Positions 2,566 to 63,876 of a stretch of 64,000 bases of DNA are shown piece after piece. The stretch lies in sequence record OM632671.1, one strand, 5' to 3'. The translations under genes were made by a program, and so were the position numbers. The notes under the pieces are model-generated. The model made no database searches, was not told the DNA's origin, and saw only the letters and a program-made list of their open reading frames with translations. The DNA comes from Escherichia phage BEU50. The number at the start of each line of letters is the position of its first letter. Within the stretch, counting starts at the first letter, position 1.

Positions 2566-2589
2566 TACCTCCTATAAACGTGGGAGGTA
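2566..2589 (+). promoter_or_regulatory. hairpin sequestering the e ribosome-binding site
   Basis: TACCTCC (2566-2572) pairs with GGAGGTA (2583-2589); loop TATAAACGT. Confidence 0.45.
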
Positions 2590-2591
2590 TT

Positions 2592-3080
2592 ATGAATATA
2601 TTTGAAATGCTTCGTAATGACGAAGGTCTTAGACTGACTTTATACAAAGACACCGAAGGCTTTTGGACGATTGGCATAGGCCATTTAGTAACAAAGAACC
2701 CGTCTTTAGCCGTAGCTAAAGCTGAACTTGACAGAATGATCGGACGTAAATGCAACGGTACAATTACCCTTGATGAGGCTGAAAAGCTATTTAATGAAGA
2801 CGTTGATAAAGCCGTTCGCGGAATCTTGGGTAATGCTAAACTTAAACCGGTATATGATTCTTTAGATGCGGTTCGTCGTTGTGCATTGGTCAATATGGTC
2901 TTCCAAATGGGTGTAGCAGGCGTCGCCGGTTTTACTAATTCTCTTCGTATGCTTCAACAGAAACGTTGGGATGAAGCGGCAGTAAATCTAGCCCAATCTA
3001 AATGGTATCGTCAGACACCTAATCGCGCGAAACGTGTAATCTCAACATTTAAAACAGGAACTTGGAAAGCGTATATATGA
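2592..3080 (+). CDS. e: lysozyme (endolysin)
   Basis: MNIFEMLR...GIGHL...[13 protein letters not shown] matches T4 lysozyme along its length; ORF-track start 2580 is GTG. Confidence 0.95.
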
Positions 3081-3358
3081 AAACATATAGTGAATTTTTA
3101 TCAGAATCTATTCTTAACGAAGCTACTGACACATTTGCAACTAAGCTAGGTGCAGCTTTGGTTGAAGCTGAAAGTCTATTAGCACGTATTTCTGAACTTG
3201 CTAGTAAGATAGATACTCGCAAATTTGAACGTACCAGCGATATCGCTAAGCTTGAAGCTTTGTTACGTATGTGCGATAAACCGGAAGAAATCGCTAAGAA
3301 CGGCTCGTTAATGAAACAACGTCTTGAAAAATATATTTCAGGCGCTTCAGAAAAATAG
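3077..3358 (+). CDS. internal-protein-like protein with capsid targeting sequence
   Basis: N-terminus [10 protein letters not shown] resembles T4 IP targeting sequence MKTYQEFIAE; ATG overlaps e stop (ATGA). Confidence 0.55.
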
Positions 3359-3359
3359 T

Positions 3360-3412
3360 GTTTACTTCCTCCAAGGACTTTGATACTATACATTCATCAA
3401 CTACTTGGAGGA
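3360..3412 (+). promoter_or_regulatory. early promoter inside inverted repeat (upstream of denV)
   Basis: GTTTAC 3360-3365; arms TCCTCCAAG (3367-3375) and CTTGGAGGA (3404-3412), distal arm is the SD. Confidence 0.5.
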
Positions 3413-3416
3413 AATT

Positions 3417-3830
3417 ATGACTCGTATCAATTTAACACTTGTTTCTGAACTGACTGACCAACATCTTATGGCTGAGTATCGTGAATTACCACGCGTATTT
3501 GGTGCAGTCCGTAAACATGTTCAAAACGGTAAACGTGTAAAGGATTTTAAAATCTCTCCAACATTTATCTTAGGCACAGGTCACGTAACATTCTTTTACG
3601 ACAAACTCGAATTTTTACGTTTACGTCAAATCGAGCTAATCGCTGAATGTTTGAAACGTGGTTTCAAAATCAAGGACACGACAGTCCAGGATATTTCCGA
3701 CATCCCTGCCGAATTTCGTAATAATTATGTCCCGTCCGAAGCGTCCATTGCGATAAGTCAAGCACGCTTAGATGAAAAAATTGCTCAACGTCCGACTTGG
3801 TACAAATACTATGGTAAATCAATTTACTAA
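3417..3830 (+). CDS. denV: endonuclease V, pyrimidine-dimer DNA glycosylase
   Basis: [12 protein letters not shown]...[11 protein letters not shown] matches T4 DenV; ORF-track start 3405 is TTG. Confidence 0.95.
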
Positions 3831-4475: not shown

Positions 4476-4500
4476 CATAAATTAAAACAATAGGAACAAA

Positions 4501-4830
4501 ATGAAAACATATCAGGAGTTTATCACTGAAGTTACATTATCTGCGGAACAGAAAGCTGCTATCGAAGAAGGTAAAAATCCCAAAGTAACATACAAAGTAA
4601 ATAGTAAAGGCGTTTTTGATGGCTTGGTTCAAGACCCTGAATTGAAAAAAGCTCTTTCTAAAACTAATGCGTACTTTGCTCCTAAATTTAACACAGCCGG
4701 TGTACTTATTGGATTGGATGTATTCAACTCTAAAGGTGTTCTATCTAATGCCTTTGGTTATGCCGCTAACAAAATTACCAAAGCCGCATGGGAATCCAAT
4801 ACCAAACAAGCTCAAAAGCCTAGAGTATAA
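4501..4830 (+). CDS. internal-protein-like protein with capsid targeting sequence
   Basis: N-terminus MKTYQEFITE. Confidence 0.65.
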   Translation: MKTYQEFITEVTLSAEQKAAIEEGKNPKVTYKVNSKGVFDGLVQDPELKKALSKTNAYFAPKFNTAGVLIGLDVFNSKGVLSNAFGYAANKITKAAWESNTKQAQKPRV

Positions 4831-5003
4831 TTCTTGCCTAATAAAGGGAAACGCAACCTCTCCTCATGAACGTCGAGTCCTCTGAGTGATGTACCTTTTC
4901 CAACCTGTAATAAGGTCGAGCGCAATGCGGTAATGGGTTTACATAGCGAGTCGAAGGACCTAACATGTGCCACGGAATGGCCCCAACCTAAAAGAGAAAC
5001 TAA

Positions 5004-5543
5004 ATGAGAACATTTTTAACTGGACCTTATCTATCCCTGATGAATGCTTTTACACACCATTCTGATGCTAGAGTAGAAGAAATTTGTAAGAACGGTTATA
5101 TCCCACCGTTTGAAGACGTACTCAAGCAGTACTGTACACTTCGTTTAGACGGCGGCAGACAATCAGGTAAATCGACCGCAGTAACTAATTTTGCTGCTAA
5201 TTGGCTGTATGACGGTGGAACAGTTATTGTTCTTTCTAATACTTCAGCTTACGCTAAAATTTCTGCAAATAACATTAAAAAGGAATTTTCTCGTTATTCT
5301 AGCGATGATATTCGATTCCGTTTATTTACTGATTCTGTTCGTAGTTTTATTGGCAATGAAGGTTCTAAATTCCGTGGATTAACGCTTTCTCGTATTCTGT
5401 ATATAATTGACGAGCCTATTAAAGCTCCTGATATGGATAAGATTTACAATGTCCACATTAAAACAGTACAGCACTGCTGCAAAAGCAAATATTGCATCGG
5501 CGGTAATGCTCGTCCTCAATTTTTTGTGATTGGAATGCAATGA
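5004..5543 (+). CDS. hypothetical protein with P-loop-like motif (179 aa)
   Basis: GGRQSGKST motif. Confidence 0.5.
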   Translation: MRTFLTGPYLSLMNAFTHHSDARVEEICKNGYIPPFEDVLKQYCTLRLDGGRQSGKSTAVTNFAANWLYDGGTVIVLSNTSAYAKISANNIKKEFSRYSSDDIRFRLFTDSVRSFIGNEGSKFRGLTLSRILYIIDEPIKAPDMDKIYNVHIKTVQHCCKSKYCIGGNARPQFFVIGMQ

Positions 5544-5848
5544 TGACCACTATTGAAGTTTTTGAGTATTGTTATAACAGCCCAGTATGCAATAAAAGGG
5601 CTCTTGTAGAAAATTATGAGATTTACCATTTTAAACCTAAACGATATCGTTTGACTAAAGGTCCGTTCGCAGGGCAGCAGGTTCTTTGTACTGCTCCTAA
5701 TGCACGGTTGATGACTAGTATTCCGCATTTCAAAATGGAATTTATTGATGGGCCATTTAAGGGATTAATCACTCAAAGTTTAATGGCGTTTAATTCCGAC
5801 CCATTTTTGATTAAAGAAAAATCTTGGATAAATTTATTTTCTAATTGA
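5540..5848 (+). CDS. hypothetical protein (102 aa)
   Basis: ATGATGA overlap with upstream stop. Confidence 0.45.
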   Translation: MMTTIEVFEYCYNSPVCNKRALVENYEIYHFKPKRYRLTKGPFAGQQVLCTAPNARLMTSIPHFKMEFIDGPFKGLITQSLMAFNSDPFLIKEKSWINLFSN

Positions 5849-62872: not shown

Positions 62873-63292
62873 ATGAATATTGTAAATCTCTCTACAGGTG
62901 ATTATGTATATGTATCCGTTGCTTCTCGCTCTAAAGTTGCCGGGAAGTTGGTTGAAGTTCTTTCTGTGAGTGATCCGGTTTTTGGACGTAACGAAGTTAA
63001 AGTTCGTGACGCTGATGGTAACATTGGTTATGTCTCAAGCCAATTCATTGAACCAGAAGAAAAAGCGTTCAAATGGGGACTATGCAGATCAGTTTCTGTT
63101 GAAAAAGACCATGAATTCACTATTGCTGCGGCAACTGATGGAACACCGTGGAAAACTAAGCAAATCGCTGGATTTATTAGCGACCGTTGGGTAGAAGATG
63201 GTGTTAAGCTTTATAACATCGTTTTCGCTGGACAGTTCATGGTAGTTCCTGAATTCCAAATTAAAAAATATAGCCCAGCTGCTTTCGCATAA
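62873..63292 (+). CDS. member of a tandem paralogous family (139 aa)
   Basis: GFISDRWVEDGVKLYNIVFAGQFMVV. Confidence 0.55.
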   Translation: MNIVNLSTGDYVYVSVASRSKVAGKLVEVLSVSDPVFGRNEVKVRDADGNIGYVSSQFIEPEEKAFKWGLCRSVSVEKDHEFTIAAATDGTPWKTKQIAGFISDRWVEDGVKLYNIVFAGQFMVVPEFQIKKYSPAAFA

Positions 63293-63296
63293 AGTT

Positions 63297-63345
63297 GTTT
63301 ACTTCTCCTCTGGTTTTGGTATTATAACCATATCAACCAGAGGAG
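63297..63345 (+). promoter_or_regulatory. early promoter inside 11-bp perfect inverted repeat
   Basis: GTTTAC 63297-63302; CTCCTCTGGTT (63305-63315) / AACCAGAGGAG (63335-63345). Confidence 0.55.
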
Positions 63346-63351
63346 AATAAT

Positions 63352-63876
63352 ATGTTAGTTTACCGCGTAGAACGTAGTTTTTGTACTCAACGTGAATCAT
63401 TACCAGGAATTGCTATCGAAGACGGTAAAGCCGTCAGAATTTGGGAAACCTCTTGGAATAAAGAACCTCGCTCACCATACGGTTGGTCGGGCACCGACAA
63501 CTCTGAAGAAACATGGGAGTTCCTTGATAAACATGGAATAATCTCAGGTAATTTCTACCATCACGGCGACAACTATAACGTCCCTAATCGTCCTACAGTA
63601 AATGAAGACAAACTCCTTGAACAAAATATCTTAAGATACTATAGAATTGAGCACACATTTGAATTGAGTGAAGATTGGGCTCAAGGGTTCTATTTTGGAT
63701 TTGAAAGTGTTGACGCGGTTTATGCATGGTTTGATGACCAGGTGGATGTTGAACTCTTGAAAGCTAAAGGATACTACATCGCGGTCTATGAAGCACCTGA
63801 TTTCATCCTCGGAAGTTGTCAATTAATGTTCAGACGTTCATTGGCAGAACAAGTTGATTTTATTTTGCTAAAATGA
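63352..63876 (+). CDS. hypothetical protein (174 aa)
   Basis: ATG after AGGAGAA. Confidence 0.5.
   Translation: MLVYRVERSFCTQRESLPGIAIEDGKAVRIWETSWNKEPRSPYGWSGTDNSEETWEFLDKHGIISGNFYHHGDNYNVPNRPTVNEDKLLEQNILRYYRIEHTFELSEDWAQGFYFGFESVDAVYAWFDDQVDVELLKAKGYYIAVYEAPDFILGSCQLMFRRSLAEQVDFILLK

Follow-up and report, generated by a model that had tools for sequence, protein, structure and literature searches.

Positions 4831-5003 of the 64,000-nucleotide stretch of Escherichia phage BEU50 analysed here (sequence record OM632671.1; the whole stretch is called the window below) lie between an internal-protein (ip)-like gene and a homologue of the T4 gene vs.8. Comparison of this gap with the same junction in related phages supports the presence of a folded non-coding RNA, and neither the remnant of a gene nor a recombination scar. 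Comparative alignments show a multi-helix, pseudoknotted RNA, predicted to be read from the + strand, which is the strand of the genes. The window comes from an RB69-like T4-type phage (Mosigvirus), and is 99% identical to Escherichia phage NRG-P0074 over positions 4500-5550.

A preliminary description, made from the letters of the window alone, had singled out the gap as GC-rich, apparently structured and free of convincing open reading frames (ORFs) and early-promoter motifs, and had offered a small RNA, the remnant of a deleted gene or intron, and a recombination scar as explanations. Its coordinates are right: the stop codon of the ip-like gene at 4830 forms the 5' edge of the gap, and the vs.8 homologue starts at 5004. 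The two strings quoted as examples of GC-richness were located at 4915-4937 and 4967-4988. The gap contains 46.8% GC, compared with a window mean of 36.9%, and falls in the top 0.7% of 173-bp windows, among which the standard deviation is 3.8%. All frames on both strands are broken by stop codons in most relatives, in agreement with the claim that no ORF is present.

Evidence for the fold was obtained from two alignments. In a structure-blind MAFFT alignment of 19 T4-like sequences (A1), 90.9% of the cells are paired, compared with 21-44% when the partners are slid by 1-3 columns, and the covariation score of 0.113 (0.042 in shuffles) was reached by 0 of 500 shuffles. A covariance model built from the MAFFT alignment (R2), containing the nested helices without the pseudoknot, matches positions 4839-4996 at 170 bits. 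This model was used to align 65 copies of the element (A4), an alignment that is fitted to the nested helices of its model. In A4, 91.1% of the cells are paired, and 27 of the 38 pairs change on both sides, which was reached by 0 of 500 shuffles. The two-sided changes take in all five P1 pairs, all of P2, all P6 pairs and the pseudoknot, which is absent from the model behind A4. Frequent G-U pairs (e.g. UG15 at pair 98-144 of A4) suit an RNA from the + strand only. RNAalifold, applied to the MAFFT alignment, gave the pseudoknot helix as nested and paired CCUUU with UAANGG instead of forming P1. This alternative was rejected because KPV15 and L021 (AAAGC/GCUUU) and the KaAlpha type (CUGG/CCAG) show compensatory changes that preserve P1 and P2 and disrupt the CCUUU/UAANGG pairing.

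The features of the fold and of its surroundings are listed in Table 1. P1 encloses the 5' strand of the pseudoknot and hairpin H1, and abuts the three-way junction P2/P3/P4; in the comparative alignments, the 3' tail folds back onto the P1 loop as a pseudoknot. All 5 of the P1 pairs covary in A4, with the variants AAAGC/GCUUU, AAAGA/UCUUU, GGGAA/UUCCC (in T4), GAAUG/CAUUC and ACAGC/GCUGU. Two pairs of the pseudoknot are variable, as CG10/AU4/GC4 and GC9/CG8/AU1 in A1, and as CG21/UA12/AU5/GC4/GU1 and GC29/CG9/AU3/GU3 in A4. H1 is highly conserved in most T4-like genera; T4 proper and the non-T4 phages have a short hairpin in its place. P2 covaries by lineage (CC/GG, CUGG/CCAG, ACU/AGU, GCA/UGU, CAC/GUG, CCAU/GUGG), its pairs in A4 being CG50/GC11 and CG42/GC10/UA4/AU3/GU1. 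P3 has an invariant CCU/AGG stem, an outer pair that is GC in place of AU in 4 sequences, and a loop of the pattern G-Y-R-A-W-A, a GNRA-like loop with two additional bases. P4 variants with GUC/GAC stems occur, and the GGUAA of junction strand J4/2 is nearly invariant across every lineage. The 3' extension formed by P5 and P6 is specific to T4-like phages. The tentative P5 has compensatory variants ACAA/UUGU, and P6, which is followed by CCCCA, varies to CCG/CGG in S16 and to GUCA/UGAC in FBB1. Compensatory changes in at least six helices, including the pseudoknot, together with conservation across genera, bear out the small-RNA option of the preliminary description.

Table 1. Features of the RNA element and of the genes around it. 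Positions refer to the window unless another record is named.
Feature	Position	Strand	Basis or remark
Lysozyme e	2580-3080		Local gene order
Internal-protein (ip) gene	Between lysozyme e and denV		Local gene order
denV	3405-3830		Local gene order
Three ip-like genes, MKTYQEF capsid-targeting start	After denV, last ending 4830		Local gene order
Upstream internal-protein-like gene, 109 aa, MKTYQEF... start	4501-4830	+	ORF list; hypothetical protein in NRG-P0074
Spurious 42-aa ORF	4838-4966	-	Coding sequence in NRG-P0074 (XKC24071) and KaAlpha (KAALPHA_132), as hypothetical protein
Structured RNA element, ~145-150 nt, UAAUAAAGG to GGCCCCAAC	4839-4987	+	R2 match, blastn conservation
P1 5' strand AAAGG	4843-4847	+	Pairs with 4894-4898
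Pseudoknot 5' strand CGC	4852-4854	+	Within P1 loop, pairs with 4946-4948
Hairpin H1 ACCUCUCCUCAUGAAC...GUCCUCUGAGUGAUGU	4856-4892	+	Closing pair covaries CG11/AU6
P1 3' strand CCUUU	4894-4898	+	Pairs with 4843-4847
P2 5' strand UCC	4899-4901	+	Closes three-way junction, pairs with 4935-4937
P3 hairpin ACCU-GUAAUA-AGGU	4903-4916	+	Invariant columns in alignment A2
P4 hairpin GC-GCAAU-GC	4920-4928	+	Second pair covaries CG59/UA5
Junction strand J4/2 GGUAAU	4929-4934	+	Conservation line of alignment A2
P2 3' strand GGG	4935-4937	+	Pairs with 4899-4901
Linker UUUACAUA, pseudoknot 3' strand and variable loop	4938-4966	+	Loop with conserved A(A/U)GGA(C/U)
P5 (tentative) ACAU / AUGU	4941-4944 / 4965-4968	+	84.9% of cells paired
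Pseudoknot 3' strand GCG	4946-4948	+	Inside 4938-4966
P6 hairpin GCCA-CGGAA-UGGC	4969-4981	+	All 4 pairs change on both sides; confined to T4-like phages
vs.8 homologue, 179 aa	5004-5543	+	tblastn
vs.7, vs.6 and further genes through regB	3' of vs.8 homologue		Local gene order
N-terminal extension of T4 vs.8	L003 (T4 AF158101) 2487-2606 = record 64793-64912		Overlaps RNA element

A sensitive blastn search with positions 4825-5010 (186 bp) as the query matched 989 phage records at 75-100% identity, in at least eight named Tevenvirinae genera. A lack of conservation in relatives, which the preliminary description had named as grounds for giving up its proposal, is clearly not what was found. Identity to the element is 95-100% within Mosigvirus, and 79-88% between genera: 88% in Gelderlandvirus S16 and Jiaodavirus KPV15, 83% in Kanagawavirus, 82% in Dhakavirus JS10, and 79% in Roskildevirus FBB1. 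T4 is 79% identical over the 3' half of the element, and Karamvirus and an unclassified Yersinia phage are also among the matches. The corresponding regions are complement(64806..64942) of T4 (AF158101) and complement(63283..63440) of RB69 (NC_004928). The Vs.8 proteins of the same genera are just 36-57% identical (tblastn), with values falling to 36-40%, and the ip genes upstream vary from genus to genus, so the gap is the best-conserved sequence of the junction. The recombination scar proposed earlier is contradicted by this better conservation of the gap relative to the flanking genes, and by the recurrence of the core of the element in unrelated phages. Alignment of the same junction in relatives, a check suggested in the preliminary description, thus returned a conserved, covarying RNA. 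No copy of the element was found in 5,426 complete E. coli genomes.

Outside the T4-like phages, the architecture of P1, pseudoknot, P2-P3-P4 and GGUAA recurs, as revealed by scanning viral, genome and metagenome collections for the pattern and filtering the hits with R1, a 48-position model of the core. The core is carried by rV5-like Vequintavirinae, by Klebsiella phages of ~48 kb, by 360-kb jumbo phage contigs (L060, L199), by uncultured lineages (L029, L064/L070, L065/L068, L067, L069/L179, L164, L184) and by two Pseudomonas megaplasmids. The P1 and pseudoknot sequences are lineage-specific yet complementary (GAAUG/CAUUC, GAGUG/CACUC, GCUGC/GCAGC), and the lineage with P1 ACAGC/GCUGU has the pseudoknot CCGAA/UUCGG.

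These searches show that the family spans several unrelated virulent phage lineages, mostly in or beside tRNA clusters and on the tRNA strand. A tRNA gene lies within 1.2 kb of the element in 27 of the 35 non-T4 loci, the nearest tRNA always being on the same strand, and most of the 8 loci without a nearby tRNA end within a few hundred bases of the motif. The element is located upstream of the tRNA cluster in the rV5 and Klebsiella types, between tRNAs in L065, L067 and L068, and 53-61 nt past a tRNA 3' end in L060 and L179. T4-like phages have their nearest tRNA ~6 kb upstream of the element, likewise on its strand. None of the non-T4 loci encodes a Vs.8 homologue, and an all-against-all BLASTP comparison of the neighbouring ORFs and a Pfam scan found no common protein family at these loci; terminase genes occur near the element in several non-T4 lineages, inconsistently. 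Second, tandem copies of the element are present in five loci (L032 5038-5307, L036 8964-9233, L202 371-513, L064 838-953 and L129 2116-2231), a gene-like duplication typical of RNA genes. In Karamvirus-like contigs, P5 and P6 are missing from the first copy, and the second combines a minimal H1 with a P3 stem of GCCU/AGGC.

Several of these lineages show features of their own. Scans of bacterial genomes gave 52 pattern hits, compared with roughly 60 estimated from base frequencies, and only the Pseudomonas megaplasmid copy is convincing. This copy, the only convincing non-phage setting found, is present on two ~1 Mb megaplasmids (L100 4493-4614, from Pseudomonas sp. PLMAX pPLMAXa, and NZ_CP143488 802632-802796) as a full element with P1 ACAGC/GCUGU and pseudoknot CCGAA/UUCGG. 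An HNH endonuclease gene lies ~1.7 kb upstream of it, with no tRNA within 8 kb. In rV5-like phages (L058 = rV5 DQ832317, 2500-2700; L046 1-330), a repeated cassette, consisting of the hairpin CCCnUAGAGGG followed by CTTGAWAGTGC, occurs on both sides of the element. The cassettes possibly act as terminator/promoter units, in which case the element would be a small transcription unit by itself, ahead of promoter P74 and the tRNA cluster. The rV5-like contig L046 also contains a group I intron (RF00028, 81 bits) at 3115-3418, ~3 kb downstream of the element. Klebsiella phages of the 48-kb type (L016 5270-5446, - strand; L023, L034, L042, L130, L148, L178) have a long-range helix GUUGUGAC/GUCACAAC closing the whole element, and a repeat ..TTTCCGTTGTG.. 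precedes the element and again precedes the tRNAs. L179 and L069, otherwise different contigs, share a conserved ~70-nt extension ~20-100 nt 3' of the core. It holds the hammerhead-core-like CUGACGAG; the Rfam scans reported below covered other loci than L069 and L179.

The best explanation, and in our view a moderately probable one as far as sequence comparison allows, is that the ~145-nt + strand RNA persists as a putative stable structured RNA that acts apart from vs.8. That the core does not depend on vs.8 is shown by its occurrence without a Vs.8 homologue in rV5-like, Klebsiella, jumbo and uncultured phages, and on the megaplasmids. The RNA would be made as part of a transcript shared with its neighbours and released by host RNases, like the T4 tRNAs, RNA C and RNA D; its effect would depend on its fold, which would bind a protein or another RNA, and not on vs.8. 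A relocation of the module from a tRNA cluster to the denV/ip-vs.8 junction may have taken place in T4-like phages, and at this junction its 3' part possibly also provides signals for vs.8. Its setting in tRNA operons hints at a role in tRNA supply, processing or protection.

More tentatively, the element could represent an undescribed RNA class of T4-like, rV5-like, jumbo and other phages, integral to tRNA operons and having a putative biochemical activity of its own; we regard this wider proposal as possible rather than probable. Candidate activities would be a new ribozyme, a ligand-sensing fold, or an RNA docking on tRNAs or on tRNA-targeting host factors, for example as a decoy against anticodon-nuclease defences. 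On that proposal, the position of the RNA under a mis-set ORF start would explain why it escaped notice in T4 for decades.

Several results weigh against a stable RNA acting apart from vs.8. Folding of the single sequence gave minimum free energies no better than those of shuffled sequences for either strand (z = +1.98 for the + strand and +0.92 for the - strand), so the gap sequence alone does not look structured; the earlier impression of an apparently structured segment fails under single-sequence folding, and holds, strongly, under comparative analysis. Many aligned rows are close relatives, and there are therefore fewer independent compensatory events than the cell counts suggest. For P5, MHG19 and the second copy in L032 allow more than one pairing register. 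No terminator follows the element. Finally, the element and vs.8 are found in near-equal numbers of records (989 and 1,010, respectively), with near-identical counts per host genus, and this shared distribution and their adjacency in T4-like phages suit a cis-acting leader or an RNA-protein partnership equally well.

Such a leader is the main rival, although we consider it unlikely. The element would be a cis-acting 5' leader, with an aptamer-like or protein-binding fold that controls the translation or transcription of vs.8, or would act in partnership with the Vs.8 protein. In nearly all T4-like phages vs.8 is the gene after the element, starting 20-30 nt downstream, and in addition to the matching record counts, the restriction of P5 and P6 to T4-like phages favors this explanation. 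The architecture of the element also recalls riboswitch aptamers, with unpaired bases that are invariant in a three-way junction, with a long-range pseudoknot and, among T4-like phages, with a site just ahead of a gene; a conserved aptamer fold with invariant junction nucleotides is indeed present (P3 loop, GGUAA strand). In Jiaodavirus, however, an ip-like gene is inserted between the element and vs.8, and the cores of other lineages lie in tRNA clusters, with no coding sequence to regulate and no Vs.8 homologue. Tandem duplicated copies likewise argue against a leader. An expression platform was not detected: there is no terminator-like site, and no conserved pairing that would sequester the vs.8 ribosome-binding site is present in the alignments. 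Unlike riboswitches, most non-T4 copies are without an adjacent coding sequence, and none of the Rfam riboswitch families matched.

Vs.8 is a single-domain ASCE P-loop ATPase, with Walker A GGRQSGKST and Walker B LYIIDEP, and belongs to PHROG 1488, to which no function is assigned there. It is found only in T4-like phages (29 clusters in a large protein database). Its AlphaFold model (pLDDT 82.7) is weakly similar to the ATPase domains of SF1 helicases and terminases, with a best TM-score of ~0.5. The predicted helicase/terminase-like fold could act on nucleic acid, which would favor a partnership with the RNA, but the model itself is not informative about the RNA. Several GenBank records call Vs.8 'endoribonuclease' or 'terminase large subunit', labels that look like annotation carry-over.

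By analogy with small self-cleaving RNAs, the element might instead cleave polycistronic phage transcripts next to tRNAs, either as a new self-cleaving ribozyme or as an element dedicated to RNA processing. A compact pseudoknotted fold with few invariant unpaired nucleotides, positioned directly beside tRNAs in several lineages, would suit such a role. However, no Rfam 15 ribozyme family matches even at E <= 10, and no candidate cleavage site can be named, making this explanation improbable.

Still less probable is a function at the DNA level, whether as an early promoter, as a PeSL-like cassette or as a hotspot of recombination at the edge of the hypervariable internal-protein locus. A promoter-like TTTACA-N17-TAACAT lies at 4938-4966, inside the element, and its -35 hexamer TTTACA fits the TTTACW of the T4/PST early (PeSL) promoter consensus TTTACW-N17-TAYWAT (PMC4122927). 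To this extent the preliminary description was mistaken in finding no early-promoter motif, although the scan as a whole is not above chance, with 2 promoter-like sites found compared with 2.3 expected. The site might give vs.8 a start of its own near 4973. It could account for at most the 3' third of the element; T4 is without the TTTACA hexamer, and KaAlpha-type phages and L026/L047 have insertions of 20-35 nt that break the promoter spacing but leave the flanking pairs intact. A DNA site would not be expected to show compensatory changes with G-U pairs over ~145 nt. The promoter/stem-loop (PeSL) cassettes of T4-type phages consist of a single stem-loop and a promoter, with many repeats per genome (PMC2839356, PMC4122927). 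Like them, the element is a conserved non-coding sequence that borders a hyperplastic gene block, here the variable internal-protein genes, and contains a TTTACA that fits the -35 consensus. Unlike them, it is present in one copy per genome, is ~145 nt long with at least six covarying helices, and also occurs outside the T4 group. A PeSL cassette was ruled out by the single copy, the unfixed promoter-like spacing and the lack of the -35 hexamer in T4.

Existing annotations assign coding sequence to the gap in two ways. In records such as NRG-P0074 and KaAlpha, a 42-aa protein is annotated on the minus strand, and in 16 of 19 relatives stop codons interrupt this frame; the 'ARPYYR' conserved in it simply reflects the invariant P3/P4 core in reverse translation. 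In T4, vs.8 is annotated as a 219-aa protein beginning 120 nt (40 codons) upstream of the conserved MRTFLTG start, and because the start was set that far upstream the annotation covers the RNA element. The resulting N-terminal extension is open only in T4. In-frame stops are present in all relatives examined, including close T4-type contigs, where they fall just before MRTFLTG. Judged from these sequences, the T4 vs.8 start codon is most likely mis-set in the annotation. On neither strand was any frame conserved in relatives, and the variable columns are without the 3-base periodicity of codons (30/49, 26/51, 26/49). With these frames closed, with the segment better conserved than the real genes around it and its core recurring in unrelated phages, and with no intron or other Rfam match, a decayed gene or intron remnant, as envisaged in the preliminary description, or a 42-aa minus-strand protein is very hard to credit.

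A stable RNA acting apart from vs.8 would have consequences for T4 itself, probably the best-studied phage, for which the catalogued non-coding RNAs are eight tRNAs, RNA C and RNA D. Adding a second kind of conserved folded RNA to this list would extend phage RNA biology in a concrete and testable way. Sequenced T4-like genomes with the element number ~1,000, and many belong to candidates for phage therapy; the element is also found in the tRNA operons of unrelated phages, and provides a handle on the old question of why phage tRNA clusters carry extra stable RNAs. It also corrects annotations, namely the T4 vs.8 start codon and the spurious minus-strand 'hypothetical proteins' of several records.

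The element was compared with known RNA classes using the 4,227 covariance models of Rfam 15, in permissive scans at E <= 10 and in scans at the gathering level. The permissive scan of the window element gave three chance hits to unrelated families, with E = 2-7.3, far below gathering scores, and the tRNA-embedded L067 copy gave no match. At the gathering level, there was no hit in the 64-kb window, and scans of 7 related loci gave only tRNAs and one group I intron, located elsewhere. No tRNA or tmRNA was detected, since the Rfam tRNA model did not match the element and ARAGORN found 0 tRNA genes in the 64-kb window. The group I intron model likewise did not match the element; this test works, because the model (Intron_gpI) detects the real intron in L046. 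No match at E <= 10 was obtained for the hammerhead, twister, twister-sister, pistol, hatchet, HDV-like or hairpin ribozymes. The covariance-model scan suggested in the preliminary description therefore gave no match of the element to an Rfam 15 family or tRNA model.

In full-text literature on vs.8, the core sequence, and rnaC, rnaD and T4 small RNAs, the element is nowhere described, although an unnamed listing among the 10,006 candidates of a phage RNA survey (PMC10690425) is possible. A T4 omics paper mentions only RNA C and RNA D. The element is a real structured RNA family without an Rfam 15 model and without mention in the literature searched. Two other candidates were rejected: T4 oriE lies elsewhere, near repEA, and the non-coding RNA arrays of UG27 reverse transcriptases are unrelated to the element. 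A likeness to rRNA, of the GUAAUA loop to the 23S 1095 loop and of GCGGUAAU to the 16S 530 loop, was dismissed because by our estimate ~10 such 8-mer matches are expected by chance.

Large structured RNAs of the ROOL and GOLLD families often adjoin tRNA genes. Like ROOL and GOLLD, which occur in phages and prophages, the element is a structured phage RNA; unlike these multimeric cages of 500-800 nt, it is only ~100-150 nt long, and it has no match to the Rfam ROOL or GOLLD models. HDV-like 'theta' and hammerhead ribozymes are found beside phage tRNAs. The element shares with them the character of a small pseudoknotted RNA in phage tRNA regions, and differs in its junction GGUAA and GUAAUA loop, without a covariance-model match to either class.

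A further parallel is with the T4 stable RNAs RNA C and RNA D (species 1 and 2). Homology to these was ruled out, as there is no similarity in sequence or structure, and the T4 region 67000-74500, which contains rnaC, rnaD and the tRNAs, gave no match to R1 (E <= 1) or R2. RNA C and RNA D are ~120-140 nt long and are encoded among the tRNAs, in their cluster and on their strand; tRNA-processing enzymes presumably release them (T4 annotation; PMC9697503). A comparable position is found for 27 of the 35 non-T4 loci of the element. In T4-like phages the element differs from RNA C and RNA D in lying ~6 kb from the tRNAs, upstream of vs.8, and the 64-kb window contains no tRNA.

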